Numbered from the stretch's first letter, positions 9,311-63,516 are shown. The stretch is DNA of 64,000 nucleotides from Microgenomates group bacterium Gr01-1014_5 (GCA_007376395.1 VMGE01000004.1:6431-70430); one strand, 5' to 3'. Notes: generated by a model from the sequence alone, not told the origin. Numbers and translations are program-made.

Positions 9311-9375
9311 GTGTTGACCCCGCTGAGCGGGGTTGACCCTTCGACTTCGCTCAGGGCTTGACAGCGCGTATTTTT
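9311..9375 (+). repeat. GC-rich palindromic element (terminator-like) after rseP
   Basis: CCCCGCTGAGCGGGG hairpin plus GACCCTTCGACTTCGCTCAGGGC, a motif shared with 60.83 kb and 63.01 kb. Confidence 0.6.
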
Positions 9376-9699
9376 GAGGAGTAAGCTATATATCAGTTTA
9401 CAAATTACCTCGGGATTGGTTTCGGGGTTTATTTTTGCGTCGCGAAGCAAAGCATAAAACAAGCTTCGCTTATGTTTGGTTAAAACAGCAATGAATAAAC
9501 AAGAAAATCTATATGTACACGTAGAACCATTAGTAGGATATGTATCCCCCGAAAACGGGGAGTATATTACAATGGCGGATATAAAAAGAGCCAGAGCTGA
9601 GCTTGCAATAACTGGTCCTACTCCTCGCGTAACACCACGACCAACGCCTTTTGACCCTGAATCTCTAAAGAAGAGACTGCCATCTCAATATATCCACAC

Positions 9700-9925
9700 T
9701 TGACTTCTGAGAGGGTGAGTATTATATTTATTTTAACGCAATGAAGGAGTTCCCAGCTTTTTCAAACCCTGAGTGAAATCGAAGGGGGAGCGGGCAAGGA
9801 TTAAGTAACTTGCACGGGTAAGCCCGAAATAGCAGTAATAAGTCACGACCAGGTTTATGGTTGTGTAAACAAAGGTGGTACCACGGCATAGCCGTCCTTT
9901 ACTAAAGGATGGCTATTTTTGTTTT
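9700..9925 (+). promoter_or_regulatory. putative T-box leader (promoter, Stem I region, canonical antiterminator/terminator)
   Basis: -35 TTGACT 9700-9705, -10 TATATT 9723-9728. AAAGGTGGTACCACGG 9871-9886 matches the T-box consensus with the 7-nt UGGUACC bulge. A1 helix AAAGG/CCTTT and A2 helix ACGG/CCGT. The competing terminator AGCCGTCCTTT..AAAGGATGGCT is followed by ATTTTTGTTTT. Confidence 0.5.
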
Positions 9926-9928
9926 AAG

Positions 9929-10189
9929 ATGATAAAACCAACAATTAAATACGAAGATTTTGAGAAGGTCGATATGCGAGCTGGCAGGGTCACACGTGTC
10001 GAGGACTTTCCTGAAGCCCACAAGCCTGCATATAAACTTTGGATTGACTTCGGGCCAGAGATTAGGACAAAGCAGTCTAGTGCCCAGGTGGTTAAGCATC
10101 AAACAAAAGAAGATTTATTGGGAAAACTTGTGGTTTGTGTAGTCAATTTTGAACCAAAACAAATTGGCCGTTTACTTCTGAGGTATTAA
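9929..10189 (+). pseudogene. CsaA/Trbp111-like tRNA-binding domain protein, apparently frameshifted near the 3' end
   Basis: [28 protein letters not shown] matches the OB-fold tRNA-binding domain. The ORF stops at 10189, but the +2 frame continues as [31 protein letters not shown] to 10279, a typical C-terminus. Confidence 0.55.
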
Positions 10190-10280
10190 CCTTAGGGGTT
10201 GCAGATGAAACCCAAGATGCAAGCAACTGGATAATCTTGCGACCTTTTAAAGAGGCGCCGTTAGGAGGTATGATTAAGTA

Positions 10281-11720: not shown

Positions 11721-12311
11721 GTTTGCCTTCTCTTTAGCTTCAGATAGTAGAATTATTGAAGAAAAATCCTTAGGTGCAAAGCTGTTCCACAGCCTGTCTG
11801 CTTCCTGCTTCAATGTTCTGGTAAAAGCAAGAGAAAGGTCTTTGTTAGTTCGGGGATCAATTGCGCCGTTCTTGTTGCGGGTAACATAATCTTCTGGATA
11901 CAATACAATCAGCGCTTTTCTAAAAGGGGTTGCTCCGAGGTCTTTAACTAAATCTCTATTCCAGGTTTCAGTGGCTTCTAAGAGGTAATTATTTCTTTGC
12001 TGTACTGACGACTGCGCTCTTGTAAAAAACACGGCGATAGCTGTTCCGTCTGGAATTTGAGCTCCGTTTGGATCAGCAAGTAGAACCTCTATAAATCTGG
12101 AACTTATACTCATTCCTAAGTTAGGAAAGTCATTGTAAAGGTAAATTTTCTTCTTGTAGTTTTTTGCTTGAGCTGGCTCAAGGTTAAATCTTTGATCTAT
12201 AGAAAGATTAGCTTCGGGTTGGGTGCAAGATAGGGCTGTAACTGCGGAACCAAGACCTAGTAAAGTTAAAAATTCTTTTCTTGTAAATTTCCTTCTATTT
12301 TGTTCAGCCAT
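11628..12311 (-). CDS. putative lipoprotein
   Basis: N-terminal signal with lipobox ALSC. The 3' end overlaps proS by 93 nt. Confidence 0.4.
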   Translation of the reverse strand: MAEQNRRKFTRKEFLTLLGLGSAVTALSCTQPEANLSIDQRFNLEPAQAKNYKKKIYLYNDFPNLGMSISSRFIEVLLADPNGAQIPDGTAIAVFFTRAQSSVQQRNNYLLEATETWNRDLVKDLGATPFRKALIVLYPEDYVTRNKNGAIDPRTNKDLSLAFTRTLKQEADRLWNSFAPKDFSSIILLSEAKEKANLITLAEEPTAKSFIAALDTLTFCLNLLIKR

Positions 12312-16604: not shown

Positions 16605-16713
16605 CTTCTTGAAGAAATCCCGATGTGCAAACGTAATCCACACCTGGTGTGGAATAGCTTTGCACCTGCGTACCCTTGCCTCTAGAAATATATCGCGTTA
16701 TACTGAGAGCCAA

Positions 16714-17274
16714 ATGGCTGATCAGCCCCAAGAACCAACAATTGTCCAACCCAGCCCGCCAGTAGCTATTCCTACAGCTCCAGCAGAAGACTGTATTTTT
16801 TGTAAAATAGTCCGTGGCGAGGCACCTGTACATAAAATTTGGGAAGATAGCGAACACATGGCTTTCTTAAGCATATTTCCCAACACACCAGGATTTACTG
16901 TGGTAATTACCAAAGTTCACCACCCAAGCTATGCTTTTGCCAACTCTGACGAAATATTGACTAAATTGACGCTTGCCGCAAAGAAAGTAGGAGAGCTTTT
17001 GGATTTGGCTTTTGAAGACGTGGGCCGTACCGGATTAATGTATGAAGGGTTTGGGGTTAATCATTTGCACGCTAAGTTGTTTCCTATGCATGGAACCGGC
17101 AATATGGAAACCTGGGAACCAATCAAAAGCCCGTTGAAAACGTTTTTTGACCAATATCCCGGATTCATGTCTTCGCACGACGCTGACAAGGCAGACGATG
17201 CCCAGCTTGAGGCACAAGCTTCCAAAATCCGCAACAAAGCAAAACAGGTTGCAGAACTGGGCGGGAAGATTTAA
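16714..17274 (+). CDS. HIT-family hydrolase
   Basis: DCIFCKIVRGEAPVHKIWEDSEHMAFLSIFPNTPGF.VVITKVHH followed by a NHLHAKLFPMHG His cluster. Confidence 0.65.
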   Translation: MADQPQEPTIVQPSPPVAIPTAPAEDCIFCKIVRGEAPVHKIWEDSEHMAFLSIFPNTPGFTVVITKVHHPSYAFANSDEILTKLTLAAKKVGELLDLAFEDVGRTGLMYEGFGVNHLHAKLFPMHGTGNMETWEPIKSPLKTFFDQYPGFMSSHDADKADDAQLEAQASKIRNKAKQVAELGGKI

Positions 17275-17341
17275 CTAGAGACTAGAGACTGGAGACTAGA
17301 GACTGGAGACTAGAGACTGGAGACTGGAGATTAGAGGCTAG
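17275..17341 (+). repeat. about 9.5 tandem copies of the heptamer CTAGAGA/CTGGAGA, running from the stop codon of one gene to the ATG of the next
   Basis: Read directly: CTAGAGACTAGAGACTGGAGACTAGAGACTGGAGACTAGAGACTGGAGACTGGAGATTAGAGGCTAG. Confidence 0.85.
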
Positions 17342-17788
17342 ATGTTGAAAGATGAACTGTCAAAGCAAATTATAGAATCCCTTAAATCCGGGAATTCAGT
17401 GCGTGTTTCAACCTTAAGACTTCTGGCAAGCGCGCTTCACAACGAAGAAATAGCCAAACAAGCACAACTCTCTAACGACGACGAAGTGGTGATTATCAAA
17501 AGACAATTAAAGCAAAGAGAAGAAGCCGTAGAGGCTTATGAAAAAGCAGGAAGAACCGAATCGGCAGAAAAAGAAAGGTCAGAGGGAGAAATCCTGAAAG
17601 AATTCCTGCCAGAACAGATAGGAGAAAATGAATTGAGCGATATAGTTAATAAAGCGATTGAGGAAAGTAGCGCACACTCAATGAGCGATTTTGGAAAGGT
17701 AATGAGTGCGGTTATGGCTAAAGTTAAAGGACAAGCAGATGGGAAGCTTACCTCAGAGCTAGTTAGAGCAAAACTATCGGGTGGTTAA
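17342..17788 (+). CDS. yqeY: GatB/YqeY-domain protein
   Basis: Typical YqeY N-terminus (LKSGNSVRVSTLRLLASAL) and length. Confidence 0.7.
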   Translation: MLKDELSKQIIESLKSGNSVRVSTLRLLASALHNEEIAKQAQLSNDDEVVIIKRQLKQREEAVEAYEKAGRTESAEKERSEGEILKEFLPEQIGENELSDIVNKAIEESSAHSMSDFGKVMSAVMAKVKGQADGKLTSELVRAKLSGG

Positions 17789-17808
17789 ATTACGCATGTT
17801 CCAAATAT

Positions 17809-17837
17809 GGCCTCATAAGGTCTCACCTTGCGAAGCT
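17809..17837 (+). repeat. degenerate copy of the AGCTTCGCAAGG-TCTCT-CCTTGCGAAGCT palindromic element
   Basis: GGCCTCATAAGGTCTCACCTTGCGAAGCT. Right arm intact, left arm decayed. Confidence 0.45.
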
Positions 17838-21031: not shown

Positions 21032-21484
21032 ATGCAACCGACTGCCAAAAAACCTAAAGATAAAAAAAGAATATACACACAAAATCCTTTCGAGGAACCT
21101 CTAAAGATTTTAGAAGAGGCAGGAAAACAACTTTCTGGAGATTATTCTCCTGCGAACCAGCAAGAACAGCAAACAGAAAATACATCAGCGGTAGATCATG
21201 CTGCAATTAAAAAACGCGAACAGAGACATTATCAGACTTTCCAAAACGAACTAATCGAAATTAGAAACATTCAAAAAGAGAGAGAACAAGAGCGTCAACA
21301 ATTGAGGGTGCAGGAAGAACGGCAAAAACAGATGCAAGAAGAACAGAAAAAGAAAAAAGAACAAGAAGGGCTAATTGAACCAATTACCCGCAAGGCAAGA
21401 GGAATGCTCGGGGGTGCAGGGGCAATGCTGGGGGTTAAAAGAAAACAGCGAAGCACAGAATTGGTAAAAACGCCGAGCAACTAG
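21032..21484 (+). CDS. hypothetical Lys/Glu/Gln-rich coiled-coil protein
   Basis: Low-complexity ORF. Its stop codon TAG is the first unit of the downstream heptamer repeat. Confidence 0.35.
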   Translation: MQPTAKKPKDKKRIYTQNPFEEPLKILEEAGKQLSGDYSPANQQEQQTENTSAVDHAAIKKREQRHYQTFQNELIEIRNIQKEREQERQQLRVQEERQKQMQEEQKKKKEQEGLIEPITRKARGMLGGAGAMLGVKRKQRSTELVKTPSN

Positions 21485-21514
21485 AGACTAGAGATTGGAG
21501 GTTAGAGGCTAGAC
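21481..21514 (+). repeat. tandem heptamers CTAGAGA CTAGAGA TTGGAGG TTAGAGG CTAGAC abutting the ATG at 21515
   Basis: Read directly. Confidence 0.8.
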
Positions 21515-21874
21515 ATGGCAGTTGATTTTACAGAGCTAAGAGTTTGGCAGATTGCACATAAACTAACTATCGATATTTATCTTCTTACAAAGAAGTTCCC
21601 TAAAGAAGAAATCTACGGACTAATTAGCCAACTTAGGAGGGCGGCGGTTTCTGTGGAAGCTAATATTGCAGAAAGTCATGGACGGTTTCATTCGGCTGAT
21701 ATTGTCAGATTTTTACTAGATTCTCGAGGGTCTATATATGAAGTTCAAAGCCTACTAATGATATCCCAAGACGTGGGCTATTGCACGAGTCACAGTACAG
21801 ACGCTTTGTTGAAACAGTATTCAGATCTTGCGAAACAAGTTAACAGTTTAATTAGATACAAAAGAAACAATTAA
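21515..21874 (+). CDS. four-helix-bundle protein (23S rRNA intervening-sequence protein family)
   Basis: WQIAHKLTIDIYLLTKKFPKEEIYGLISQLRRAAVSVEANIAES is the family signature. Confidence 0.65.
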   Translation: MAVDFTELRVWQIAHKLTIDIYLLTKKFPKEEIYGLISQLRRAAVSVEANIAESHGRFHSADIVRFLLDSRGSIYEVQSLLMISQDVGYCTSHSTDALLKQYSDLAKQVNSLIRYKRNN

Positions 21875-24680: not shown

Positions 24681-25040
24681 ATGGACAATTTAGAATTTGC
24701 AAAAAGGCTAGAAGTAAGGACAGAACGATTTGCCGATGACGTGTATGTTCTTTGTCGTGCGTTGGAGAAAGTAGATCTAGTTGTAAAAGAAATTATATCT
24801 CAATTAGTAAGGTCAGCAGGTTCTGTAGGATCAAATTACATAGAGGCGAACGAAAGTTTAAGCAGGAAAGACTTTTTTCATAGGATCAGGATATGTCGGA
24901 AAGAGAGCAGAGAATCTCGTTTCTGGCTTAAGAGACTATTAATTTTGTTACCAGAGAAACACACTAAAGAAGTCAATCGCTTAATAAGTGAATCTTCAGA
25001 ATTCATTTTGATTTTTTCTAAAATATTAACTAAAGCATAA
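24681..25040 (+). CDS. four-helix-bundle protein (second copy, same family as 21515..21874)
   Basis: LVRSAGSVGSNYIEANESLSRKDFFHRIRICRKESRESRFWL is the family signature. Confidence 0.65.
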   Translation: MDNLEFAKRLEVRTERFADDVYVLCRALEKVDLVVKEIISQLVRSAGSVGSNYIEANESLSRKDFFHRIRICRKESRESRFWLKRLLILLPEKHTKEVNRLISESSEFILIFSKILTKA

Positions 25041-35167: not shown

Positions 35168-35196
35168 AGCTTCGCAAGGTCTCTCCTTGCGAAGCT
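35168..35196 (+). terminator. perfect 12-bp-stem hairpin AGCTTCGCAAGG-TCTCT-CCTTGCGAAGCT after purD (member of a dispersed palindromic family)
   Basis: Read directly. Confidence 0.6.
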
Positions 35197-35210: not shown

Positions 35211-35233
35211 GTTTAAGGCGCCCCCTTAAACAA
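35211..35233 (+). repeat. 21-bp hairpin GTTTAAGG-CGCCC-CCTTAAAC, left copy flanking the 618-aa gene
   Basis: Near-identical copy at 37131-37153. Confidence 0.7.
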
Positions 35234-37130: not shown

Positions 37131-37153
37131 ATTTAAGGCGTCCCCTTAAACAG
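37131..37153 (+). repeat. 21-bp hairpin TTTAAGG-CGTCC-CCTTAAAC, right copy, 4 nt after the stop codon
   Basis: 20/21 identity to 35211-35233. Confidence 0.7.
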
Positions 37154-37709: not shown

Positions 37710-38095
37710 AAATCAATTACCTCAACGTTCCTCAGGTTTTGGCCATTCACGATCAAGCGGTAAGGAGGTTTGGCGGATCGTTTGGTGTTCGTGATATTGG
37801 TCTTGTTGAGTCGGCTATTGCCAGGCCGCGTGCGACCTATGATGGAAATGACCTTTATCGAGATATTTTTGATAAGACAGCGGCTCTTTTGCAATCTCCT
37901 TTAAAGAATCATCCCTTTATTGATGGCAACAAACGGACAGCCCTGTCTTCAGCTGGCATCTTTCTTAAAATGAATGGGTATAGTTTGCAAAACAAACATG
38001 AAGAAGAAGTGAAATTTGCAATTAAAGTCGATAATGAACACCTAAGTTTAGAACAAATTTCCTCCTGGTTAAAAAAGAATTCAAAGAAAAATTAA
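37706..38095 (+). CDS. doc: Doc (death-on-curing) Fic-fold toxin
   Basis: HPFIDGNKRTA motif. Confidence 0.8.
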   Translation: MKINYLNVPQVLAIHDQAVRRFGGSFGVRDIGLVESAIARPRATYDGNDLYRDIFDKTAALLQSPLKNHPFIDGNKRTALSSAGIFLKMNGYSLQNKHEEEVKFAIKVDNEHLSLEQISSWLKKNSKKN

Positions 38096-44760: not shown

Positions 44761-45069
44761 ATGAGTCTAAAAGTTGGGATAGTAGGTTTGCCAAATGTTG
44801 GGAAAAGCACGTTGTTTAACGCACTCTTAAAAAAACAACAGGCATATGTTGCGAATTTTCCGTTTGCTACCATTGAGCCGAATGTCGGTATTGTTCCGGT
44901 TCCTGACGCAAGGCTGGATGAATTGGCGCGAGTTGTCATGGCCTCTGAAAACATGGGAAGCGTACCACCTAAAGTTCCCGCAACCGTAGAGTTTGTTGAT
45001 ATCGCAGGCCTAATTGCCGGCGCACACAAAGGCGAAGGTTTGGGTAATAAATTTTTAACTCTAAATTAA
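44761..45069 (+). pseudogene. ychF: 5' fragment of a divergent ychF copy (encodes residues 1-98)
   Basis: [23 protein letters not shown]...[14 protein letters not shown] is about 80-85% nucleotide-identical to the start of full-length ychF at 47862. Similarity ends near 45055, followed by TLN*. Confidence 0.75.
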
Positions 45070-45095
45070 TTAGCTTTTATATTAAACAAAATTAT

Positions 45096-45338
45096 AGTGT
45101 CCTTGGAATTGATGGTGGGATAAATTTTACTACTGATCTGATTGATAAACTACCCTTTCCAGACTTTAACCCAAAAGACACAAAAAATAGAATTATTGAG
45201 TTAACTAATAATATTTTGAATTCTAAAGTTGAAGGTAAGGTAAAAATATTCAAATCTCAGATTGATGAATTGATTTACAAACTCTACGGCCTCACGTCGG
45301 AAGAAATTGCAATTGTGGAAAATTCAAATAATAAATAA
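45096..45338 (+). pseudogene. 3' remnant of an N6-adenine DNA methyltransferase (type IIG/BREX-like) gene
   Basis: Frame without a start codon encodes ...IDELIYKLYGLTSEEIAIVENSNNK*, the characteristic C-terminal LYGLTxEEIxxIE motif. Confidence 0.5.
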
Positions 45339-45343
45339 TTTTT

Positions 45344-45691
45344 ATGTCAAACAAATATGGCATTTCTGAAAAAGAATTAATAAAGATTAGGGAAAGAGAC
45401 AAGACTTGTGTGTATTGTCACAAAGTAATGATCGATCCTAGATCAAGGGGTAGGCGAATCGATTGGGCGACAATTGAACATTTAAACTTTATGCCCCCAT
45501 GGAACAACGCTTCTACTGTTGCAATCTGCTGTTGGAGTTGTAACTCAAGTCGTGGTAGCAAGAAATTGTTGGATTGGTTTAAAGGAGAATATTGTTTGAT
45601 TAAGAAAATAAATGAAAAGACTGTAGCCAAGCCCGTCAGAGAATTTATCAAAGTTCAAGTAAAATCGGTATTGACAATATTATCGAATTAG
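45344..45691 (+). CDS. HNH-type nuclease
   Basis: CVYCHK...IEHL...CCWSCNSSRG Cys/His pattern. Confidence 0.5.
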   Translation: MSNKYGISEKELIKIRERDKTCVYCHKVMIDPRSRGRRIDWATIEHLNFMPPWNNASTVAICCWSCNSSRGSKKLLDWFKGEYCLIKKINEKTVAKPVREFIKVQVKSVLTILSN

Positions 45692-45727
45692 TGTAATATC
45701 GATAACAAGGAAATACTAATTATCGAT

Positions 45728-46912
45728 ATGAATATTATTAATAATCGAGCAGGTATATACAAAAAAATCTTATCAGGGAATATTGCATACAAAGCATTTG
45801 TTCCTAATTTTTTGCCACTCTATCCGTCAATAAAGATGGATGACACGATTCAAATGCTATTATCTAACGCGGATAGAGCGATAGGTGGCCTTAATATAGT
45901 TACCGAACTATTGCCGGATTCAGATTATTTTATCCTTTCGTATTTAAGAAAAGAAGCTACTTTATCAAGCCAAATTGAAGGTACAAAAGCTACCTTTATT
46001 GATGTTGCTAAAGCAGAGGCAGGAGAGATAGATAGAGAAACTCCTCAGGATTACCCTGAAATCGTTAATTATATTAATGCTATAAATTATGGACTAAAAA
46101 GAATTCGTGAAGATGATTTTCCTATGGCATTACGTTTACTTAGAGAGATTCATGAAAGAATTTTAAAAGAAGTTCGTGGTCAATATAAAACTCCGGGAGA
46201 ATTTAGAAAATCACAAAATTGGATTGGCGGTGCATCTATCAACACAGCATCATATATACCTCCAACGGCTGAGGATATGAACGCAGCACTAGATAACTTG
46301 GAAAATTTTATGAACGACAAAAAACCAATGCCCGTACTAATTAGAATAGGATTAATTCATTCACAGTTCGAAACAATTCATCCCTTTTTAGATGGAAATG
46401 GTAGAGTTGGAAGACTCATGATTACTTTATTGTTATGCCATTATGGTTTGTTACCAAAACCAGCCCTTTATTTATCAGAGTATTTCAAAGCTTTTAGGAA
46501 TGAGTATTACGATAGATTAAACGCTGTACACGAAAAGGGAGATTTTGAAGGTTGGTTAAAATACTTTTTAGAAGGTGTTTGGTTGGTTGCAGAAGAGGCT
46601 ACAAGTACAGCTATGAAAATTAAAGCTTTAAAGGATAGAGATATTATGAAACTATCGGGTTTAAGCGCTCAAACTTCGCGTAATGCGATTAAATTACTTG
46701 AGAATTTATTTAGTAGCCCTATCATGACAGTGAAAGACGTTTCAAAATACACAGGATTGTCTTATGCTAACGCAAATAACCTTGTTAAAAAGTTAATAGA
46801 TTTAAAAATACTAGAACCTCTTGTTGAAAGAAAAAGGAACAGAGTTTTTGCTTATTCTGAGTATATGAACCTATTTAAAAATAGAGAATCTTATAAAAGA
46901 CAATTAAACTAA
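45728..46912 (+). CDS. Fic-family protein with C-terminal winged helix
   Basis: HPFLDGNGRVGRLM Fic motif. Upstream inhibitory-helix-like region. Confidence 0.85.
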   Translation: MNIINNRAGIYKKILSGNIAYKAFVPNFLPLYPSIKMDDTIQMLLSNADRAIGGLNIVTELLPDSDYFILSYLRKEATLSSQIEGTKATFIDVAKAEAGEIDRETPQDYPEIVNYINAINYGLKRIREDDFPMALRLLREIHERILKEVRGQYKTPGEFRKSQNWIGGASINTASYIPPTAEDMNAALDNLENFMNDKKPMPVLIRIGLIHSQFETIHPFLDGNGRVGRLMITLLLCHYGLLPKPALYLSEYFKAFRNEYYDRLNAVHEKGDFEGWLKYFLEGVWLVAEEATSTAMKIKALKDRDIMKLSGLSAQTSRNAIKLLENLFSSPIMTVKDVSKYTGLSYANANNLVKKLIDLKILEPLVERKRNRVFAYSEYMNLFKNRESYKRQLN

Positions 46913-46967
46913 TATGTCTAAATATTACCCTCCAAACAGAACACAGGAAGATATTTAGCTTCATAAC

Positions 46968-47003
46968 TGATAAAATACTCAAATGTCATTAAAAGTTGGG
47001 ATA
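46968..47003 (+). repeat. 36-nt copy of the ychF upstream region plus first 7 codons (att-like direct repeat)
   Basis: TGATAAAATACTCAAATGTCATTAAAAGTTGGGATA against TGATAGAATGATCAAATGTCATTAAAAGTAGGAATA at 47847-47882, 31/36 identical. Confidence 0.7.
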
Positions 47004-47143
47004 CGCCACACGCTATCCTATCTTTAGACTTCAGCTTCAAATTCTCACTTCCTGATCCTAAAAAGCAAAGGATTATTCTTCAGAGAGACGCTAAAGGTCG
47101 AATTTTACATTCAACTACTCAAACCTAAGCTTTTTGTCTAGTC

Positions 47144-47818
47144 TTATTCTGATATTTTCCAACGTTCTGTATCAACTAAAATTATTTTTGGTTGTTCGCT
47201 GGTGATTATGTATCCAAAATTGTCAGTATCAAAAACTCCCACTTCGTGTAATTTATCGACGATTTCATTATATTCCTTTTCCCAACTGGTTCCCCTCATT
47301 TCAAAACGGGGAGAATTTGATAGAGTTGGATAATATCTATATATCATATAGTTCTTTGTTGAATTAGCATCAGTATAATAAGCTAGTAATTGCTCTACTG
47401 GCAAATCTTCAGAATAGGCTTGCTTATAGCGTTTACTGGCTTCATTGACGATTCTAATTTGAGCTAATGGAATATTTGCCTCTAAGCGTCTCTTATACCA
47501 AGGTTCCCCTTTTTCGTTGTGGACGTCATAAGTAGAATATGCCATCTCTTTCACTAGAATTTCTGTATTACCAATTGAAAACTTTTCTACTCTCCTGGTT
47601 GATTTGCTTATTTCTTCTCCACCCTTATTTTTCCAATTAAGTGGAATTCCATTTTTTCGCCAAGGTGTTTCTGCTAATAATAGTTCCTGAAAATCTGCAG
47701 ATAAATCAGGTGGAAGAGATTTTAATACGAATAGATGTCCATCAGTGAATTTGACCCTTTCGAAATGAGGCCACTGAATCGTTGGAGTTGTATTATCGAC
47801 ACCCTCTGACATAATCAC
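47144..47818 (-). CDS. hypothetical protein (224 aa), cargo of the segment bounded by the 36-nt repeats
   Basis: ORF only. Possible kinase-like ILVDTERW. Confidence 0.4.
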   Translation of the reverse strand: MIMSEGVDNTTPTIQWPHFERVKFTDGHLFVLKSLPPDLSADFQELLLAETPWRKNGIPLNWKNKGGEEISKSTRRVEKFSIGNTEILVKEMAYSTYDVHNEKGEPWYKRRLEANIPLAQIRIVNEASKRYKQAYSEDLPVEQLLAYYTDANSTKNYMIYRYYPTLSNSPRFEMRGTSWEKEYNEIVDKLHEVGVFDTDNFGYIITSEQPKIILVDTERWKISE

Positions 47819-47861
47819 AATTATATATTAAATAATTGTGAAAATTTGATAGAATGATCAA

Positions 47862-48866
47862 ATGTCATTAAAAGTAGGAATAGTCGGTTTGCCAAATGTA
47901 GGGAAAAGCACATTGTTTAACGCTCTTCTAAAAAGGCAACAGGCATATGTTGCGAATTTTCCGTTTGCTACCATTGAGCCGAATGTAGGCATTGTTCCGG
48001 TTCCAGACAGTCGGCTCGACAAGCTCGCCGAGGTGATTAGTGATTCTTGGATAGTGAATGGTGAGAAGAAAAAACCACCCATTGTCCCCGCAACTGTAGA
48101 ATTTGTAGATATCGCAGGGTTAATTGCCGGAGCTTCCAAGGGCGAAGGGCTGGGGAATAAGTTCTTATCCCATATCCGCGAAGTTGACGCAATTTGCCAT
48201 GTTATCCGGCATTTCAAAGATAAAAATATTATTCAAACAGGAACTAATCCCAAAGAGGACTTTGAGATTGTCAAAACCGAATTAGATTTGGCAGACTATG
48301 AAATGGAAGAACAGCACAAAGAAAGAAATAAAGGAAAGGTTGACGAAAACCTACCCCTCTTTAAGAAGAAACCGATTTTAGTTGTGCTTAACGTTGACGA
48401 AGAGGATTTAATAAACGCAAAGAATATCGAGGCTGGGTTTGCGACTTCTGTGGGGCTTAATAAAGAGCAGGTGATTGCAATTTGTGCTAAAACTGAAGCG
48501 GAATTGGCGGATCTTTCAGAAGACGAACAAAAGGAATATTTAAGTGACTTGCGAATTGACAAACCGGGTTTGGAAAGGCTGGCGCAAAGCGCTTTTACCA
48601 CCCTTGGTTTAATTACGTTTTTAACCGCAGGAGAAAAGGAAGTGCGGGCTTGGACCATTCGGCGAGGTGCGACGGCTCTAGAGGCTTCCGGGGAAATCCA
48701 CACCGACTTTATGGCTAAGTTTATTAAAGCGGAAGTTGTGAAGTATGAGGATTTTGTAAATTCAGGAGGATGGAAGAAATCCCGCGATGTCGGTAAAGCC
48801 AGACTTGAAGGCAGAGATTATATCGTCCAAGACGGTGATGTGGTTGAATTTAAGATTGGCGCTTAG
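47862..48866 (+). CDS. ychF: ribosome-binding ATPase YchF (Obg-family GTPase)
   Basis: G1 [16 protein letters not shown]-terminal TGS domain (KARLEGRDYIVQDGDVVEF). Confidence 0.9.
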   Translation: MSLKVGIVGLPNVGKSTLFNALLKRQQAYVANFPFATIEPNVGIVPVPDSRLDKLAEVISDSWIVNGEKKKPPIVPATVEFVDIAGLIAGASKGEGLGNKFLSHIREVDAICHVIRHFKDKNIIQTGTNPKEDFEIVKTELDLADYEMEEQHKERNKGKVDENLPLFKKKPILVVLNVDEEDLINAKNIEAGFATSVGLNKEQVIAICAKTEAELADLSEDEQKEYLSDLRIDKPGLERLAQSAFTTLGLITFLTAGEKEVRAWTIRRGATALEASGEIHTDFMAKFIKAEVVKYEDFVNSGGWKKSRDVGKARLEGRDYIVQDGDVVEFKIGA

Positions 48867-51130: not shown

Positions 51131-51145
51131 CTTGCTAACCAGCCT
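51131..51145 (+). repeat. 15-bp direct repeat CTTGCTAACCAGCCT, left, overlapping the Fic stop codon
   Basis: 14/15 match to 52171-52185. Confidence 0.55.
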
Positions 51146-52109
51146 GGTAGTAAACACCTCTCGTCGTGCCTAGTTTTCGAATTAGCCGCTGGTCGGCTAA
51201 CTTTTTTAAGTCATAGCGTAAGGTTCTATCATTTACTTTGCTAAATCTTCTTTTAATTTGGTCAAAATTTACTAGCTTTTGCTCTTTTACGATGTTTAAA
51301 ATCTCTGCACGCCTAGGGAGTAAATAGTCTTCAGGGGTTAAATCTTTCTTTTTTAAGACTTGATCTTTTGCTTTATTTGCGCTCTCGGCTATTGCTTCAA
51401 GCATAAATTCGACATAATCTGTAACATCCTTTTGGCCTTCAGAGAGCATCGTATAGTATGTGCTTCTGTATTTATCGAGGTATTCCTCTATAGCTAAAAG
51501 CCCTTTCATTCCATAACCGCTCTTTTGTAAAGATAATTGGATTAATAATCTTCCGACCCTGCCATTTCCATCTAAAAAGGGGTGGATTTTTTCAAAAGAG
51601 TAATGGGCAAGTACAGCTCTAATTGGTACAAATTGTTCCTTTGGGCTGTTGGCAAACTTTATAAGCTTTTTTAGTAATCCTGGGATTTGTCTAGGAGGTG
51701 GCGGTATGTACACTGCAATACCGGCGGAGTTAAAAATAGCACTTACCTCGGTTCTGAATTTTCCGGGTGTATCGGTAAGTTTCAACATTGTGATTTTATG
51801 CATATCTAGAACGATACTTTGGGTAATATCGCGGAGCCCTTGTTTCTGAACCTTATTTAAGGCTTTTAAGATGTTAAACACTTCTTGCCTTTTTTGATCA
51901 GTTGAAGTTTTTCCTAACTCTTCAATTGTGAGCGGATTCCCCTCAATTCTTGCTGAAAAAAGGGAACTTTTTAACGTAGATTGGCGCCGGATATTGGTCT
52001 CTACTTCTGGTGGAATATTGATGGAGTCAATAACTTGTTTTGCAGCTTCAATTTGGCTTAATAACTCTGAAATTTTTGGGGTATGGATATACTTTGGAGG
52101 AATTAGCAT
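51135..52109 (-). CDS. Fic-family protein (second copy)
   Basis: IHPFLDGNGRVGRLLIQ motif. C-terminal wHTH. Confidence 0.8.
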   Translation of the reverse strand: MLIPPKYIHTPKISELLSQIEAAKQVIDSINIPPEVETNIRRQSTLKSSLFSARIEGNPLTIEELGKTSTDQKRQEVFNILKALNKVQKQGLRDITQSIVLDMHKITMLKLTDTPGKFRTEVSAIFNSAGIAVYIPPPPRQIPGLLKKLIKFANSPKEQFVPIRAVLAHYSFEKIHPFLDGNGRVGRLLIQLSLQKSGYGMKGLLAIEEYLDKYRSTYYTMLSEGQKDVTDYVEFMLEAIAESANKAKDQVLKKKDLTPEDYLLPRRAEILNIVKEQKLVNFDQIKRRFSKVNDRTLRYDLKKLADQRLIRKLGTTRGVYYQAG

Positions 52110-53533: not shown

Positions 53534-54751
53534 ATGAAGCTGACACTTCCCAAAATCCGGCTCTACACAATAATTCTCATTTTAATCGTTGTCTCTTTCG
53601 GCGGCGGTGTTTGGCTTGGGAAAAGGGATGTTTCTCTCCAAGCCGAAGGGCTAAAGTCTAAAATTACGATTAGCCGCAATATTCCCGAGCGGCACGCAGA
53701 TGTAGATTTCAATCTTTTCTGGGAAGTTTGGGATCGGCTTGAAGGTTCATACTTTGACAAGTCAAAAGTCGACAAAGCTAAAATGGTTTATGGCGCAATT
53801 TCAGGCATGGTTTCAGCAGTAGGTGATCCCTACACTGTTTTCCTTCCCCCTGAAGAACAAAAGAGAACGAAAGAGGACTTGGGAGGGGAGTTTGAAGGCG
53901 TCGGAATTCAGATAGGTTTCAAAGGCACCCAGCTTGCAGTCATTGCGCCTCTTGAGGGTACTCCAGCTTTTAAGGCGGATGTTAAGGCGGGAGATTATAT
54001 TGTTGGAATAAAGGATAAAAATAAAAATCTGGAACTAGGGACAGTTGGAGTTTCCTTGCCCGACGCTGTTAACGCGATCCGCGGGCCTGCAGGAACGGCT
54101 GTGGCCTTAATTTTAACCCGTGAAGGGGTAGACAAGCCGTTTGAGGTAGAAATTGTCCGCGAAAAAATTGACGTACCTTCAGTAATTCTGACAAAAGAAG
54201 GAGAGATAAGTCACCTAAAATTACTCAAATTTGGTGATCAAACTGATGGTGAATGGGATAAGGCAATAGCTAACATTAAAAAGCAAAATCCCAAAGGCTT
54301 GATTCTTGACCTGCGGAATAATCCCGGGGGATATCTCAACGGAGCGGTTACTGTGGCTGGAGAATTTATCACGCGGGGCAACGCTGTTTTACGCGAAGAC
54401 AGTAAAGGAACCCGAACCGGTATCGCGGTTAACGGTAAAGGTCAATTAATAAATACTCCATTGGTAGTGTTGGTGAATAAAGGAAGTGCTTCAGCGTCAG
54501 AAATTGTCGCGGGTGCTCTTAAAGATTACGGAAGAGCAAAGATTGTTGGTACTAAGACGTTTGGAAAGGGAACAATACAAGAATCTATTGATTTAGGGGA
54601 AGCTGGCATACACATCACTACCGAGCGCTGGCTGACACCAAACGGAACATGGGTAAATACAGTTGGACTCACGCCTGACGTGGAAGTTGAAGATGATGTC
54701 AAAACAGAGGAAGATGAACAAGTCGAAGCCGCGTTGCAGCTTCTTAAATGA
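53534..54751 (+). CDS. ctpA: carboxyl-terminal processing protease (S41)
   Basis: TM anchor. PDZ. LVVLVNKGSASASEIVAGALKDYGRAKIVGTKTFGKGTIQ. Confidence 0.85.
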   Translation: MKLTLPKIRLYTIILILIVVSFGGGVWLGKRDVSLQAEGLKSKITISRNIPERHADVDFNLFWEVWDRLEGSYFDKSKVDKAKMVYGAISGMVSAVGDPYTVFLPPEEQKRTKEDLGGEFEGVGIQIGFKGTQLAVIAPLEGTPAFKADVKAGDYIVGIKDKNKNLELGTVGVSLPDAVNAIRGPAGTAVALILTREGVDKPFEVEIVREKIDVPSVILTKEGEISHLKLLKFGDQTDGEWDKAIANIKKQNPKGLILDLRNNPGGYLNGAVTVAGEFITRGNAVLREDSKGTRTGIAVNGKGQLINTPLVVLVNKGSASASEIVAGALKDYGRAKIVGTKTFGKGTIQESIDLGEAGIHITTERWLTPNGTWVNTVGLTPDVEVEDDVKTEEDEQVEAALQLLK

Positions 54752-54821
54752 CAAATTATTCTAATTTCTAATTGCTCTAAAAGTTTAGAAATTAGGTCAA
54801 TTAGGTTAATTAAAAATCATT
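54752..54821 (+). repeat. TAATT/TTAGG periodic leader (..TTAGAAATTAGGTCAATTAGGTTAATTAAAA..) abutting the htrA ATG
   Basis: Read directly. Shares AATTAGGTCAATTAGGTTAATTA with 63.55 kb. Confidence 0.7.
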
Positions 54822-57599: not shown

Positions 57600-57640
57600 A
57601 ATTAGAAACTGGAGACTAGATACTAGAGGCTAGGTCCAGT
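57600..57640 (+). repeat. AGACTAG-type heptamers (AAACTGG AGACTAG ATACTAG AGGCTAG) abutting the rpmE start on the opposite strand
   Basis: Read directly. Same unit family as 17275-17341. Confidence 0.7.
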
Positions 57641-60809: not shown

Positions 60810-60870
60810 AGCTTCGTAAGGTCTCTCCCCTTCGAGGCTCAGGGTCTACGACTTGCGAAGCTAGTTTTTG
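60810..60870 (+). terminator. composite palindromic element: the AGCTTCGyAAGG...CTTGCGAAGCT hairpin interrupted by CCCTTCGAGGCTCAGGG, followed by a T-run
   Basis: Read directly. Combines both GC-rich element families. Confidence 0.6.
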
Positions 60871-60910
60871 TGTTAAATCGAAAAAGCTAATAGCTATAAT
60901 AAACGCAACT

Positions 60911-61606
60911 ATGAGTTGGCATGAGCAAGAACCACAGTATCAAGAAGCCCCAGTATGTCTTCCTCATCACGATTTTTTCGAGTTTGACCCTAAAAATTGG
61001 ATGTTTATTGTTCGCAGCGCGACTTCAGGATTGCGTTTTGAAGCGTCTCCCGCAAGCGATCTCGTTCAGGATATTTGGGATTTAAAAGTCACGCAAACTA
61101 CACAAAAAGAGATTGAGAGCAATAATCCCATAACCCCAGAGCCGTTACTAATTATGCCCTTAACTGGAACTTTAATTATTTCTCAGTCTTTGAGGAAGTG
61201 GCTTAAAGATTCCGACCAAGAGCGAGTAGCTGAGGTATTTGAAAGTACGAGAAAAGTAATCGAGGCTGTTTGTTGTGAACTTATGAAAAGGCAGGGCATT
61301 TCTTTCTCAAGAAGGACTGCAGCTAGATTTATAAAAAACGATGGTACAAAAAAATATTCTGGAGGGACTTTTATTTTAAATACAGTTGGCAGTTGTGCAT
61401 GCTTAGGACCAAATCCATACCCGACTTTTATGGCTTATAGGGACTCTCCCGTATCTGTTTACGACGATTTGTCTTTGCCGGTTGAAATGGTATTGCACAA
61501 CGCAGACTATCCTTATCAGAGTTTGAGTTTATATGCAGGCGCGGGAACAATAGCTCATTTCGCCAGGGAAGATATGATTAAGGCTGGGATGTTGGAGACG
61601 GCTTAG
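60911..61606 (+). CDS. hypothetical protein
   Basis: ORF only. Confidence 0.4.
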   Translation: MSWHEQEPQYQEAPVCLPHHDFFEFDPKNWMFIVRSATSGLRFEASPASDLVQDIWDLKVTQTTQKEIESNNPITPEPLLIMPLTGTLIISQSLRKWLKDSDQERVAEVFESTRKVIEAVCCELMKRQGISFSRRTAARFIKNDGTKKYSGGTFILNTVGSCACLGPNPYPTFMAYRDSPVSVYDDLSLPVEMVLHNADYPYQSLSLYAGAGTIAHFAREDMIKAGMLETA

Positions 61607-62351
61607 GTGAAGGTTTGGCTGAGGCTTTTGGGCTTGGAGAAGGGCTTACGGTTGGGCGTGGCGTACCTTTAGAACCGGGAATTACTTGGACTAAAGTAGC
61701 AACAAGCGTTTTGTCTTTCTTTGCGTTCAGTGTTCCAACGGCTACAATTCTATCTCCTTCTTCAATCTCTTTAGCCTCAATTTTTCCGTCCAGCCTTTTA
61801 ACAATTTCAGTTTTAACTGACGTTTCAACTGTCCAGACCTCTGCCGTTTTAAGATGCTTAATGGTCAAAACACCTTTTTTATTTGTCTCAACCTTGCCGT
61901 AGACTACTTGCTTTTGCAAGAAAGGGGTTTCGTCAAAAGCTAAAACACGTTGGGCGCCTAAAATATCGTCTCCGTTTTTATATCCCAAGGCGGCAATAAA
62001 ATCACCGATAGCCAAGTCAACAAACTTAACTTCCGCCTGTTTACCTTTTATGGTTTTAATGTATTTAGTATCTTTGTTTGTGGCAACCAAGACGAACTTT
62101 CCATCATCGGTTTTTATAGCGGAGCTGGTTTTTATCTTTAGTGTTGAGTCTGTAACACTATCCAGAGTGCCGATTACAGCTTTTGGTTTTTTAATCAGAT
62201 TTTCTATAGTTTTGCGGACTTTGTCGCGTACCGCATCAGTTCCAGAAGGGGAAGACTCGTCTTGGGCAGAAACGGTTGGAATTAGGAATAAAGAAGCAAG
62301 AATTAAGGAAAAAGACACGAGCGAAACCTTAATTCGTAATTCGTAATTCAT
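61578..62351 (-). CDS. secreted hypothetical protein with C-terminal Pro/Ser/Lys-rich tail
   Basis: Signal peptide. C-terminal TPRPTVSPSPSPKASAKPSPKPSP. Confidence 0.4.
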   Translation of the reverse strand: MNYELRIKVSLVSFSLILASLFLIPTVSAQDESSPSGTDAVRDKVRKTIENLIKKPKAVIGTLDSVTDSTLKIKTSSAIKTDDGKFVLVATNKDTKYIKTIKGKQAEVKFVDLAIGDFIAALGYKNGDDILGAQRVLAFDETPFLQKQVVYGKVETNKKGVLTIKHLKTAEVWTVETSVKTEIVKRLDGKIEAKEIEEGDRIVAVGTLNAKKDKTLVATLVQVIPGSKGTPRPTVSPSPSPKASAKPSPKPSPTSQP

Positions 62352-62779
62352 TATTCTGTTTCTCCCAATTCTGTTGTATAAACTACCACCAGTCTTTTTT
62401 GAGACTCGCTGCCGGAATCGTCAAAGCTAATAACTTTAATTTCATTCAGACCTACTTTAAGCTCAATTTCCTTTTCAAAACTTCCGTCTGCATCTGCCTC
62501 TAGGATGTACTCATCTATCCCTGTGGTAACAACGACCGTTGCCCGAGGGGTAGCAGCGCCTTTTATGAGTGTTGTGTCTTTTGTAACGACTAAATTATTT
62601 TCAGGTTGGGTAATTACGAGTTCGGAAAAATTATCAGGTTCCGGAGAAGCAAGCGGCGCCTCAGTTTGCAGAGCTCCAAGTTTCGGAGCAAGGGCTAAAT
62701 TTGCACGCCAAATCCCAAAGGCAACAGCAAGCCCTAACCCGACCCCAAGGATTATTGCAACAAGAACTTCCTTGCGCAT
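62351..62779 (-). CDS. membrane-anchored hypothetical protein
   Basis: N-terminal TM helix. Abuts the downstream gene, so a likely operon. Confidence 0.4.
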   Translation of the reverse strand: MRKEVLVAIILGVGLGLAVAFGIWRANLALAPKLGALQTEAPLASPEPDNFSELVITQPENNLVVTKDTTLIKGAATPRATVVVTTGIDEYILEADADGSFEKEIELKVGLNEIKVISFDDSGSESQKRLVVVYTTELGETE

Positions 62780-62847
62780 TCTTGTGCAATATAACTTATG
62801 ACTGATATCTTGTCAACCAAGTTGGCAAGTGATATATTGCAAATTAC

Positions 62848-63516
62848 ATGGAAATTCAATATCTCGGTCATTCCTCATTCCGCATAAAAGGTAAAACAGT
62901 AACCATTGTTACTGATCCTTACGATTCCGAAAAAGTAGGTTTTAAGTTTCCCAAACTTGAGGCAACAATTGTCACTATCTCACACGACCACTTTGATCAT
63001 AACCAAGCGCAATTGGTCGACCCTTCGGCAGGCTCAGGGCAAGCTCCGAAAGTTGTTTCAGGCCCGGGAGAGTATGAAATTGCCGGTGTTTCCATCTTTG
63101 GCACACATACTTATCACGACAACAAGAATGGGGAAGAAAGAGGTTCAAATACGGTCTATACAATAACTATTGACGGGGTTAACATTTGCCACTTGGGCGA
63201 TTTAGGACACAAGTTATCAGACGAACAGCTTGATTCGATAGGGAACGTTGACGTGTTGCTTGTTCCGGTTGGCGGGGTTGATACTATTGATCCATCAGAA
63301 GCAAGTCAGGTGATATCACAAATTGAACCAAAAATAATTATCCCCATGCACTACAAAGTACCAGGGTTGGCGATTTCTAAAAGAGATGATATGTCAGACG
63401 TCGAGGCATTTGTTAAGGAGATTGGCATAGAGCCAGTCAGAGACAATAAATTCGTAATTACTCCCGACAAAATGCTGGAAGAAGTACAGCTTGTCGTCTT
63501 GGAAAGACGATCTTAA
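62848..63516 (+). CDS. MBL-fold metal-dependent hydrolase (UPF0173-like) carrying an in-frame GC-rich element
   Basis: SHDHFDH metal motif. Segment 63005-63050 is homologous to the intergenic GC-rich element at 9327. Confidence 0.7.
   Translation: MEIQYLGHSSFRIKGKTVTIVTDPYDSEKVGFKFPKLEATIVTISHDHFDHNQAQLVDPSAGSGQAPKVVSGPGEYEIAGVSIFGTHTYHDNKNGEERGSNTVYTITIDGVNICHLGDLGHKLSDEQLDSIGNVDVLLVPVGGVDTIDPSEASQVISQIEPKIIIPMHYKVPGLAISKRDDMSDVEAFVKEIGIEPVRDNKFVITPDKMLEEVQLVVLERRS
63005..63050 (+). repeat. GC-rich element GTCGACCCTTCGGCAGGCTCAGGGCAAGCTCCG inside the MBL hydrolase ORF (in frame, encodes VDPSAGSGQAPK)
   Basis: About 24/31 identity to GTTGACCCTTCGACTTCGCTCAGGGCTTGAC at 9327-9357. Confidence 0.6.

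Follow-up and report, generated by a model that had tools for sequence, protein, structure and literature searches.

The 64,000-nt stretch of DNA analysed here (the window) comes from a Microgenomates bacterium of the candidate phyla radiation (CPR) and contains short GC-rich palindromes, two of which lie in-frame inside protein-coding genes. Are these elements dispersed repeats that spread as DNA, or are they native parts of the genes and gene ends in which they are found? An earlier note on this DNA favored the former, likening them to Rickettsia palindromic elements (RPEs). All of the features it described are present, some of them shifted by a few bases, in a genome that is AT-rich as it had stated, though only moderately so (GC 41%). 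We consider it probable that short REP-like hairpin repeats of at least four unrelated families are present in the window and spread as DNA within Microgenomates genomes. These GC-rich hairpins occupy positions just 3′ of genes and also form in-frame insertions in working protein genes. Copies have been gained between close relatives; most landed just 3′ of a stop codon, within the loop of another hairpin or in a protein surface loop.

Motif 1, AGCTTCGCAAGG-TCTCT-CCTTGCGAAGCT, has 12-bp arms and occurs three times in the window, each time 3′ of a stop codon and with no strand assigned. As described earlier, one copy is perfect, one decayed and one split. The copy at 35168-35196, 30 nt after the purD stop, is a perfect palindrome with a TCTCT loop whose RNA fold reaches −23.5 kcal/mol (z −8.1). 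That at 17809-17837, which precedes ybeY and follows the yqeY stop by 20 nt, matches at 24 of 29 bases, the right arm being complete (12/12) and the left arm decayed (8/12). The third (60810-60862) begins 5 nt after the stop of an NTP-transferase gene and has its loop expanded by a nested 24 nt; at the orthologous site of the closest relative (contig L001, 1812-1840) the 29-nt hairpin is intact, so that its position and sequence are kept between genomes 85% identical, which also fits a selected function. A single motif-1 12-mer with two mismatches is not above chance in the window (10 matches vs 5.4 expected), unlike the full palindromes, which are.

In metagenomes at least 120 stretches carry motif 1, which is abundant in low-GC, CPR-like contigs and is a 29-33-nt perfect palindrome typical of such genomes. 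Among the matches listed there are 113 distinct copies, up to three per contig; 47 of them (42%) lie inside ORFs, and the intergenic ones are a median of 13 nt from a gene 3′ end, with few between divergent genes. In CPR-like contigs motif 1 is in-frame in TsaD, ArgRS, DegT, an M24 peptidase and membrane proteins. The flanking bases pair and extend the stem, with T at −1 in 99/112 copies, A at +1 in 102/112, and C or T at −2, where G is found in only 8/112. The surroundings are T-rich upstream and A-rich downstream, and the consensus has no U-tract on either strand. The proposal that intergenic copies coincide with terminators therefore fails for canonical intrinsic (Rho-independent) terminators: a hairpin followed by a T-run (TTTTT) is found only at 60810, and at neither 35168 nor 17809.

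Motif 2 (CCC-TTCG..GCTCA-GGG) had been thought related to motif 1. The two appear distinct, motif 1 being a perfect palindrome of low-GC, CPR-like contigs, whereas motif 2 has a 3-bp stem and a conserved 13-14-nt loop and is found in more than ten phyla. Searched as CCCTTCG-N(1-10)-GCTCAGGG, it has three exact matches in the window, at 9337, 60828 and 63021, and none in 100 shuffles. Copy 1 (GACCC-TTCGACTTCGCTCA-GGGC, 9335-9357, plus strand) is intergenic, 24 nt after the rseP stop. Directly upstream of it, 8 nt after the same stop, is a perfect mini-hairpin, CCCCGC-TGA-GCGGGG (9318-9332, plus strand), and the two fold jointly (−32.3 kcal/mol, z −4.4). A 23-mer identical to copy 1 is found six times in viral contigs and seven times among the genome matches listed, and a near-identical version of the mini-hairpin, TCCCGCTGAGCGGGA, constitutes a 38-nt insertion in L001. 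Copy 2 (CCC-TTCGAGGCTCA-GGG-TCTACGA, 60828-60851, plus strand) is the 24-nt insertion in the loop of the motif-1 hairpin at 60810-60862, a nesting found independently in another contig (L254). Copy 3 lies within a gene and is described below. Both motifs thus repeat in the window and widely outside it, as the earlier note expected.

Two weaker matches may belong to the same family. A candidate decayed, inverted copy absent from the earlier note, CCC-TTCGATTTCACTCA-GGG (9767-9786, minus strand, one mismatch), is either a real copy or chance; its loop shares 12 of 14 bases with the copy at 9340, and it overlaps the 3′ half of stem I of a putative T-box leader upstream of proS (9732-9902), which scores 50.3 bits against RF00230 (E 7e-10; gathering score 93) and has a strongly shortened stem I. 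The other, CTT-TTCGCAACGCTCA-AAG (37186-37198, minus strand), lies where a small minus-strand ORF ends and may be chance, with about 0.75 such matches expected per shuffled window. The remaining two families, again without an assigned strand, are family B (GTTTAAGG-CGCCC-CCTTAAAC), read directly at 35211-35231 and 37131-37151 as a pair flanking a 618-aa orphan ORF, and family C (GGTGCAAACGTAATCCACACC-T-GGTGTGGAATAGCTTTGCACC), found at 16617-16670 directly 3′ of a stop codon, with a half copy at 11775-11797 and a full copy 7 kb past the window (L005, 17763-17812). No Rfam family reaches its gathering score in the window or in 14 motif-dense loci; only a spurious miRNA hairpin (E 0.01) appeared.

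Comparison with orthologues identifies three recent insertions, of 18, 24 and 126 nt, and these three are the only insertion events directly observed in this genome. The 24-nt insertion, copy 2 of motif 2, is a clean gap in the pairwise alignment with L001, and the GC-rich indels in the ~7 kb aligned between the window and L001 are these hairpins and one more in L001. The 18-nt insertion is copy 3 (63020-63047, plus strand), in-frame as reported earlier in an MBL-fold hydrolase ORF (62848-63516) that reads HDHFDHNQAQLVDPSAGSGQAPKVV; VEGNPK has become VDPSAGSGQAPK, a net gain of six codons. The insert is missing from 24 orthologues, including two that are 88-92% identical, and from L001 and L002 in DNA alignments as well. 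Since the exact insert-bearing protein is found in five contigs from four independent assemblies, it is not an assembly artefact. The insert falls just past HxHxDH, in a coil flanked by two strands (residues 59-66, between strands 57-59 and 68-71), in agreement with the surface loop that had been predicted for it. The junction is not clean (16 nt plus 2 nt plus substitutions), the target AAGGCAA resembles the 3′ part of the element itself, AGGGCAA, and this motif-2 copy alone has no stable fold (z +1.5).

The 126-nt insertion (42 codons; 28444-28569, plus strand) is a GC-rich composite that lies in-frame in a 700-aa orphan ORF (27838-29940) and encodes PPSRTESVSSQVRAKCCSLRRDSAPDEARGEDTPTVRSWELH. 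Its GC content is 0.62, compared with 0.41 in the rest of the ORF. The block had been described as palindromic and in-frame, and the frame is indeed preserved, but its fold is only moderately better than that of shuffles (z −2.8). It begins with CCCCCTTCG and has a 3′ hairpin, CTCCGACCGTCAGGTCGTGGGAG, similar to CCCCGACCGTAAGGTCGTGGG of three CPR-like contigs. Neither homologue has the block, whether in the protein (P0122 and P0123) or in the DNA (L009 and L010), and the 700-aa gene is also present in an independent ENA assembly. Both intragenic elements are hence in-frame insertions that orthologues lack, and not native sequence.

Motif 2 is carried by at least 120 genome stretches and by 83 viral ones. 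The genome matches span more than ten phyla, including Acidobacteria, Chloroflexota, Proteobacteria, Cyanobacteria and CPR, at 35-73% GC, and two to three central variants dominate; among the matches listed, exact 22-mers repeat 15-22 times in unrelated contexts. The 13-14-nt loop, TTCG(A/G)C-N(2-3)-GCTCA, is conserved and the 3-bp stem covaries. Pairing at the three inner positions is 78-83%, each with 15-43 double changes, and the covariation score is 0.459, compared with 0.167 in shuffles (0 of 500 reach the observed value) and at most 0.21 when the partners are slid. Among 50 matches to the motif-2 loop in contigs selected for motif 1 alone, 20 have complementary flanks, against 3.3 with permuted flanks.

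In CPR-like contigs, ORFs contain approximately 40% of the motif-2 copies. In Rho the motif adds 17 aa compared with the solved structure 8hsj, and it is also in-frame in DnaX, ribosomal protein L5 and a ComEC-like MBL protein, from a family with recurrent hairpin-derived inserts in three loops. The intergenic copies have no preferred orientation relative to the upstream gene (5 vs 5). Of the copies, 8.1% are enclosed by an outer stem of at least 8 bp, against 1.0% in controls, an 8-fold enrichment, and in Acidobacteria the motif is often found within the loop of a GTAG-type hairpin ending ...GGCGCTACA. In 61/99 genome loci (among the matches listed) and in 64/87 viral loci the motif lies on the G-rich strand. 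Stuttered or nested partial duplications, such as CCCTTC-GACCCTTCGAC...GCTCAGGGC-TCAGG, are common, and tandem arrays are found in two contigs (L147 and L148).

The combination of a conserved loop and a covarying stem suggests that the folded single strand is recognized by a structure-specific factor. This structural reading depends on a putative partner factor because the 3-bp stem is too weak to fold alone. Convergence or horizontal spread, as well as common descent, may underlie the sharing of the motif across phyla. We found no description of this hairpin family in the literature or in Rfam, and we tentatively raise the possibility, which we hold to be short of probable, that motif 2 is an undescribed minimal mobile hairpin of ~20 nt. 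The loop TTCG(A/G)C-N-GCTCA would be its recognition determinant, accompanied by a free 3-bp stem and often a YRAAC tail, and its movement would rely on a single-strand-specific enzyme, either widely shared or itself spreading horizontally, or on the core replication/repair machinery. It would invade hairpin loops, REPs and coding loops in at least ten phyla and in their viruses.

The elements of the window behave like REP elements, RPEs and yeast mitochondrial GC clusters. REPs, which include GTAG- and CGTC-tagged superfamilies (Di Nocera et al. 2013), are 20-40-bp palindromes present in many copies, mainly within 20 bp downstream of ORFs, where their ends can supply stop codons (PMC3733652). 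Intragenic copies, some of them in genes for replication, repair and tRNA synthetases, are read in-frame as peptides, and REPs also nest within other palindromes and form dimers and clusters (PMC3733652); the behaviors found here are all already documented for them (PMC3733652). Motif 1 shares with REPs its many dispersed short palindromes, three in 64 kb and the 113 of the metagenome matches listed, and its location near ORF 3′ ends, 5-30 nt after stops in the window and at the 13-nt median among those matches. However, motif 1 has paired Y-T...A-R flanks in place of an unpaired GTAG/CGTC tag, motif 2 is flanked by GA...C without such a tag, and the conserved loop and variable stem of motif 2 are the reverse of what is seen in REPs. 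Moreover, Pfam searches found no transposase, RAYT (Y1 HUH transposase) or other HUH gene among the called genes of the window outside 11-20 kb and of its 10-kb flanks, and the CPR lineage is not among the eight phyla listed for REPs (PMC3733652).

RPEs are dispersed palindromic repeats found in-frame in unrelated housekeeping genes, where they add a peptide at tolerated positions (PMC10969869). The resemblance proposed in the earlier note holds for behavior, given the in-frame, peptide-adding inserts in the MBL hydrolase, the 700-aa ORF and, in related contigs, Rho, DnaX, TsaD and ArgRS, and the 126-nt block is of RPE-like size. Nothing assigns the elements to the RPE sequence family, however: RPEs are ~100-150 bp and restricted to Rickettsia, whereas motifs 1 and 2 are 18-33 nt in a Microgenomates host, a separation made on size and host. 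Motif 2 is, in addition, not lineage-restricted, and no sequence relation is expected. Nor are in-frame palindromes rare outside Rickettsia, as had been supposed, since intragenic REPs are known in several phyla (PMC3733652) and GC clusters in yeast mitochondrial var1 (PMC8811140). Those clusters are mostly intergenic but in-frame in var1, merge and shuffle into composites, and are regarded as mobile with no transposase known (PMC8811140). They too are short, GC-rich and palindromic in a lower-GC genome, but they belong to a different genetic system, have unrelated sequences, and carry AG/TAG terminal repeats, read as target duplications, that are not found here. Mosaics of small hairpins with inverted ends (CCGTTCG...CGAACGG) are formed both by the 126-nt block and by compound elements of ~110-130 nt in L029 and L057. 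They recall BIMEs (mosaic REP clusters) and MITEs (Correia, ERIC and others), the latter of which also occur in-frame in ORFs. Unlike these, they have no identified parent insertion sequence, and the units are far shorter than typical MITEs. The three filled/empty pairs show no clean target-site duplication, only imperfect flanking similarity (AAGGTCTCTC/AGGGTCTACGA and TTTTAT/CTTCAT).

How might the hairpins spread? We propose that, while the DNA is single-stranded, they would be mobilized in trans or else copied via template switching or gene conversion, which would explain both the preference for hairpin loops and the bias for the G-rich strand. Selection would then retain only stop-free copies of a length divisible by three, leaving peptide insertions of 6 to 42 residues. 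A different possibility, which we regard as unlikely, is that the hairpins are functional RNA at mRNA 3′ ends (terminators, exonuclease protection or processing sites) selected in place, the intragenic copies being by-products. The 3′-proximal positions in the window and among the metagenome motif-1 matches listed, the scarcity of copies between divergent genes, the conservation of the 60810 hairpin in L001, the TTTTT that follows this hairpin in the window, and the similar role proposed for REPs (PMC3733652) are all consistent with it. It is difficult to reconcile, however, with the T-upstream, A-downstream consensus and thus the lack of a U-tract on either strand, with the even orientation of intergenic motif-2 copies, with the intragenic fraction (42% of listed motif-1 copies and ~40% of motif-2 copies in CPR-like contigs) and with the decay of the 17809 copy. 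It also leaves new coding-loop insertions unexplained, although it could coexist with mobility.

We find it rather improbable that host replication and repair enzymes account for everything, the elements spreading from other genomic copies by short-patch gene conversion, template switching or microhomology-mediated repair and with no transposition. The negative transposase search and the three filled/empty pairs described above would fit such a process, as would the similarity of the MBL target to the element, the stuttered duplications and tandem arrays of motif 2, and the comparable merging and shuffling of yeast GC clusters (PMC8811140), but it does not by itself explain the same loop with a covarying stem in more than ten phyla or the 8-fold enrichment inside other hairpins. 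That the peptide segments are instead native lineage-specific loops, chance matches or assembly artefacts is highly implausible. MBL loop length does vary among orthologues (GPSGNP, AAPPTGG and GAPLSERKL), and some motif-2 matches are native codons, clearly in RadA (L117) and probably in SHMT (L285). The insertion comparisons already contradict this explanation, however: MBL orthologues 88-92% identical lack the segment and independent assemblies agree. Moreover, the 22-nt string of the MBL insert also encodes DPSAGSGQ in an unrelated secreted protein (L266), motif 2 has no match in 100 shuffles, and exact 22-mers recur in unrelated contexts among the matches listed.

Spread of the hairpins as DNA, if true, would mean that small CPR genomes are still gaining hairpin inserts in essential proteins (Rho, DnaX, ArgRS, TsaD and L5), an overlooked source of protein length variation and of "orphan" segments. 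In-frame hairpin inserts, if kept in CPR genes, would also give rise to spurious ORFs and misleading alignments in metagenome annotation, and the presence or absence of an element between close strains offers a ready-made marker for strain tracking. Motif 2, should the tentative reading given above be correct, would be smaller and more widely distributed than any other mobile DNA unit known in bacteria. It raises the question of which factor reads the same 13-nt loop in Acidobacteria, Chloroflexota, Proteobacteria, Cyanobacteria and CPR, and that factor, once identified, could reveal a new mode of DNA movement.

The window has a GC content of 41%, its GC skew is positive along the whole length and its genes lie mostly on the plus strand; no tRNA gene reached threshold and no Rfam family reached its gathering score over the window. 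The recurrence of GC-rich motifs described in the earlier note is confirmed here. Motif 1, a 12-5-12 palindrome, is perfect at 35168-35196 (AGCTTCGCAAGG-TCTCT-CCTTGCGAAGCT), 30 nt after the purD stop codon. At 17809-17837, 20 nt after the yqeY stop codon, lies a copy whose left arm has decayed (24 of 29 bases match), and an interrupted one is found at 60810-60862, 5 nt after the stop codon of the NTP-transferase gene. Motif 2 is a TTCG..GCTCA loop closed by a short stem, in its CCC/GGG-stem form CCC-TTCGACAAGCTCA-GGG; written as CCCTTCG-N(1-10)-GCTCAGGG, it has three exact matches (9337, 60828 and 63021) and none in 100 shuffles. A candidate inverted copy with one mismatch lies on the minus strand at 9767-9786, within the Rfam-aligned stem I of a T-box-like leader (9732-9902) upstream of proS. 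This leader scores 50 bits against RF00230 (E 7e-10; the gathering score is 93) and has a much shortened stem I, whose 3' half on the minus strand closely resembles the motif-2 hairpin. A sliding scan for GC islands was unspecific, the 39 islands returned being for the most part native coding sequence. The two motifs had been taken as related; we find separate families with CTTCG alone in common, and a single family is ruled out by their different architecture and distribution.

Judged by sequence comparison with relatives, the copies are insertions in all three testable cases. In the MBL-fold hydrolase ORF (MBL; 62848-63516), the translation given earlier is correct and reads ...HDHFDHNQAQLVDPSAGSGQAPKVV..., and the segment is carried by none of 24 aligned orthologues, two of them at 88-92% identity. 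The orthologues have LVEGNPKV where the window has LVDPSAGSGQAPKV, and at the DNA level the window contains 16 + 2 bases more than either of two relatives, L001 and L002. The exact insertion-bearing protein is found on five contigs from four independent assemblies, and the insertion is therefore not an assembly artefact. It is identical to a protein listed by NCBI under 'Microgenomates group bacterium Gr01-1014_', a candidate phyla radiation (CPR) MAG, and the product of the 700-aa ORF described below is listed under Gr01-1014_5. AlphaFold (mean pLDDT 89) models residues 59-66 as a coil between strands 57-59 and 68-71, with the lowest confidence within the model core. Translation through an insert would give, for example, the spanning peptide LVDPSAGSGQAPK. 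The second case is the motif-2 copy nested in motif 1. L001, which is 85% identical to the window in nucleotide sequence across 8 kb, has an intact motif-1 hairpin at the orthologous site (AGCTTCGTAAGGTCTCTCCTTGCGAAGCT), and the motif-1 loop of the window holds exactly 24 extra bases, CCCTTCGAGGCTCAGGGTCTACGA. In the third, an orphan 700-aa ORF (27838-29940), the insert at 28444-28569 is 62% GC within a 41% GC gene; the sole two homologues are without its 42 residues and have the empty site GGTTTTAT/AGAGTGG. When this 126-nt block was compared by BLAST with all fetched loci, shuffled controls were not exceeded, and its 3' hairpin is the only part that recurs. The GC-rich indels in the alignment of the window with L001 are these hairpins and one 38-nt hairpin insertion in L001, TCCCGCTGAGCGGGA, which resembles the hairpin at window 9318-9332. 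The three filled/empty pairs have no clean target-site duplication, and no transposase-like Pfam family was found among the called genes of window 0-11 kb and 20-64 kb and of the flanks.

A metagenome scan for motif 1 with the pattern AGCTTCGYAAGG-N(3-33)-TTGCGAAGCT returned at least 120 stretches, and those listed have a mean GC content of 42%. Almost every listed copy has the 12-5-12 palindromic form, and the loop varies but is rich in GC (CCAGG/CCTGG, CGTCC/GGACG, CCTCC and TCTCT/AGAGA among the matches listed), and up to three occur per listed contig. The earlier note had placed intergenic copies at terminator positions. Among the matches listed, the median distance of intergenic copies from a gene 3' end is 13 nt. 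The flanks of the listed copies prolong the stem, with T at −1 in 99 of 112 and A at +1 in 102 of 112, and in the same 112 copies a U-tract is absent on either strand. Motif 1 is therefore no canonical terminator, and it is this flank composition that rules out the terminator reading. Among the matches listed, 47 of 113 distinct copies fall within ORFs of 100 aa or more; since motif-1 loci are 85% coding, copies are depleted in genes, yet far from excluded. The in-frame peptides read SFARxxLAKL or LASQGxALRS and are found within TsaD, ArgRS (DALR domain), DegT aminotransferases, an M24 peptidase and several membrane proteins.

Motif 2 was found in more than ten phyla. A stricter pattern, GACCCTTCG-N(1-10)-GCTCAGGGC, returned 83 stretches in viral contigs and at least 120 in species-representative genomes. 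Hosts among the matches listed are Acidobacteriota, Chloroflexota, Proteobacteria, Nitrospira, Bacteroidota, Verrucomicrobiota, Planctomycetota, Cyanobacteria, Actinomycetota and several CPR groups; they include isolates and closed chromosomes and range in GC from 35 to 73%. In the great majority of listed matches the gap is 3-4 nt, and single 22-mers (GACCCTTCGACAGGCTCAGGGC, ...ACAA...) recur 15-22 times in unrelated flanks, a recurrence that is for these reasons beyond chance. The variants of the window were found again elsewhere as exact strings.

In a relaxed search (NNN-TTCG-N(3-6)-GCTCA-NNN), the flanking triplets are complementary far above chance, and not as CCC/GGG alone: GGC/GCC, TGG/CCA, TCC/GGA, ATTC/GAAT, GTGC/GCAC and CGGCC/GGCCG stems also occur. 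Among 127 copies, none chosen via the CCC/GGG pattern, each of the three inner positions is paired in 78-83% of copies and shows 15-43 double changes. The covariation score is 0.459; the shuffled mean is 0.167, 0 of 500 shuffles attain the observed score, and sliding the partners yields no more than 0.21. In contigs ascertained only through motif 1, complementary flanks of at least 3 bp accompany 20 of 50 loop matches, against 3.3 for permuted flanks. Covariation and complementary flanks thus define the motif-2 unit as a conserved 13-14-nt loop on a short stem whose sequence is free to vary; CGAAC(GG) often comes next, or TAAAC in CPR-like contigs. In Proteobacteria-like loci, units are combined into 110-130-nt compound elements whose ends are inverted (CCGTTCG...CGAACGG) and in which each local hairpin has its own complementary triplets. 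Embedding in a larger perfect stem (8 bp or more) is eight-fold commoner for copies than for controls (8.1% vs 1.0%), and a CPR-like contig (L254) carries motif 2 within a motif-1-like loop, the same arrangement as in the window. The TTCG..GCTCA strand is the G-rich strand in 61 of 99 genome, 64 of 87 viral and 10 of 15 CPR-like loci, and the G-rich strand carries all three clear copies of the window; this bias can be due in part to the TGA stop made in one frame by the reverse orientation. Head-to-tail tandem arrays of motif 2 were observed in an Actinomycetota MAG (L147 7489-7606, five copies at 24-nt spacing) and a Betaproteobacteria MAG (L148 2-67, three copies at 22-nt spacing). The hairpin and its tail, GGCTCAGG(G/A)CGAACG, appear similar to the sequence conserved at the 5' end of 16S rRNA in bacteria (GGCTCAGGACGAACGC), which we take to be a coincidence.

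Of the 24 motif-2 hairpins in CPR-like contigs, 10 fall within ORFs, eight of these in sense orientation. The proteins affected include Rho, DnaX, the ribosomal protein L5 C-terminus, a ComEC-like MBL and a secreted protein whose peptide, IDPSAGSGQGN, is nearly equal to that of the window MBL. Compared with the solved structure 8hsj, CPR Rho has a clean insertion of 17 residues, TLEAGESPSTGSGLPKT. Gottesmanbacteria and relatives have a ComEC-like MBL family in which three loops occur in either a short or an insert-bearing form, the latter carrying decaying peptides derived from motif 1 or motif 2.

Other hairpins, repeats and islands were also observed. The hairpin GTTTAAGGCG(C/T)CCCCTTAAAC is found in direct orientation at 35211-35231 and 37131-37151, either side of a 618-aa orphan ORF (35272-37128), a placement that suggests arrival of the ORF as a cassette. 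Copies of a third palindrome family (GGTGCAAAC.TAATCCACACC / GGTGTGGAATAGCTTTGCACC) lie directly 3' of stop codons at window 16617-16670 and 11775-11797 and, 7 kb beyond the window, at 17763-17812 of locus L005; one copy is a single arm only. Intergenic spacers adjoining gene ends hold tandem heptamers (ACTAGAG/ACTGGAG) and AT-rich TTCTAAT/TAATTAG-type repeats (17274-17342, 21480-21513 and 57601-57634; also 8130-8240, 54747-54812 and 63519-63611), several pairs of which are inverted relative to each other across the window. The 5' part of ychF (47862-48866) has a duplicate, 80-88% identical, in a 102-aa fragment at 44761-45069, and the two are separated by a low-GC island (0.33-0.36) that carries a Fic_N/Fic gene and two ORFs of unknown kind; 44761-48866 has the appearance of an island that was inserted into ychF and partly duplicated its target. 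Two 23S_rRNA_IVP-family genes are present in the window, as are unusually many Fic-domain genes, one of these paired with a MazE-like antitoxin gene (together 21515-21874, 24681-25040, 37467-38095, 45728-46912 and 51135-52109). In L001 the NTP-transferase gene is followed by an additional gene of 849 nt (915-1810, vs window 60766), flanked by a ~45-nt duplication of the 3' end of the NTP-transferase gene, and dnaB is followed by an additional sigma70-like gene of 1475 nt (5851-7325, vs window ~64875); both are cassettes of gene size by whose gain or loss the two genomes, 85% identical, differ. Conserved gene order between the window genome and L001 stops at a tRNA gene (L005 14100-14190, L001 9450-9545), beyond which L001 goes on with a Fic/HTH gene, as expected for a tRNA-integrated element.

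Rfam gave no match in 14 motif-dense loci nor in an E-value scan of the compound-element region, the sub-threshold T-box being its sole result overall. Full-text search for the motif DNA strings and typical translations found no relevant paper, and a keyword search combining REP with CPR found one unrelated preprint only. REPs are 20-40-bp palindromes near ORF 3' ends, where they supply stop codons, and they also occur in-frame within genes and nested in other palindromes (Di Nocera et al., PMC3733652). The window hairpins behave like REPs, but the defining GTAG or CGTC tag is missing, and motif 2 is conserved in the part that varies in REPs and vice versa. Rickettsia palindromic elements (RPEs; PMC10969869) and yeast mitochondrial GC clusters (PMC8811140) are functional analogues and not relatives. 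In-frame palindromes, which the earlier note had called rare outside Rickettsia, are not peculiar to it; REPs are found likewise inside genes (PMC3733652). Motif 2 is a member of a structured, apparently undescribed hairpin family that crosses phyla, and the route by which the hairpin elements move is inferred; the core of the earlier interpretation, dispersed hairpin repeats tolerated as in-frame insertions, holds by analogy.
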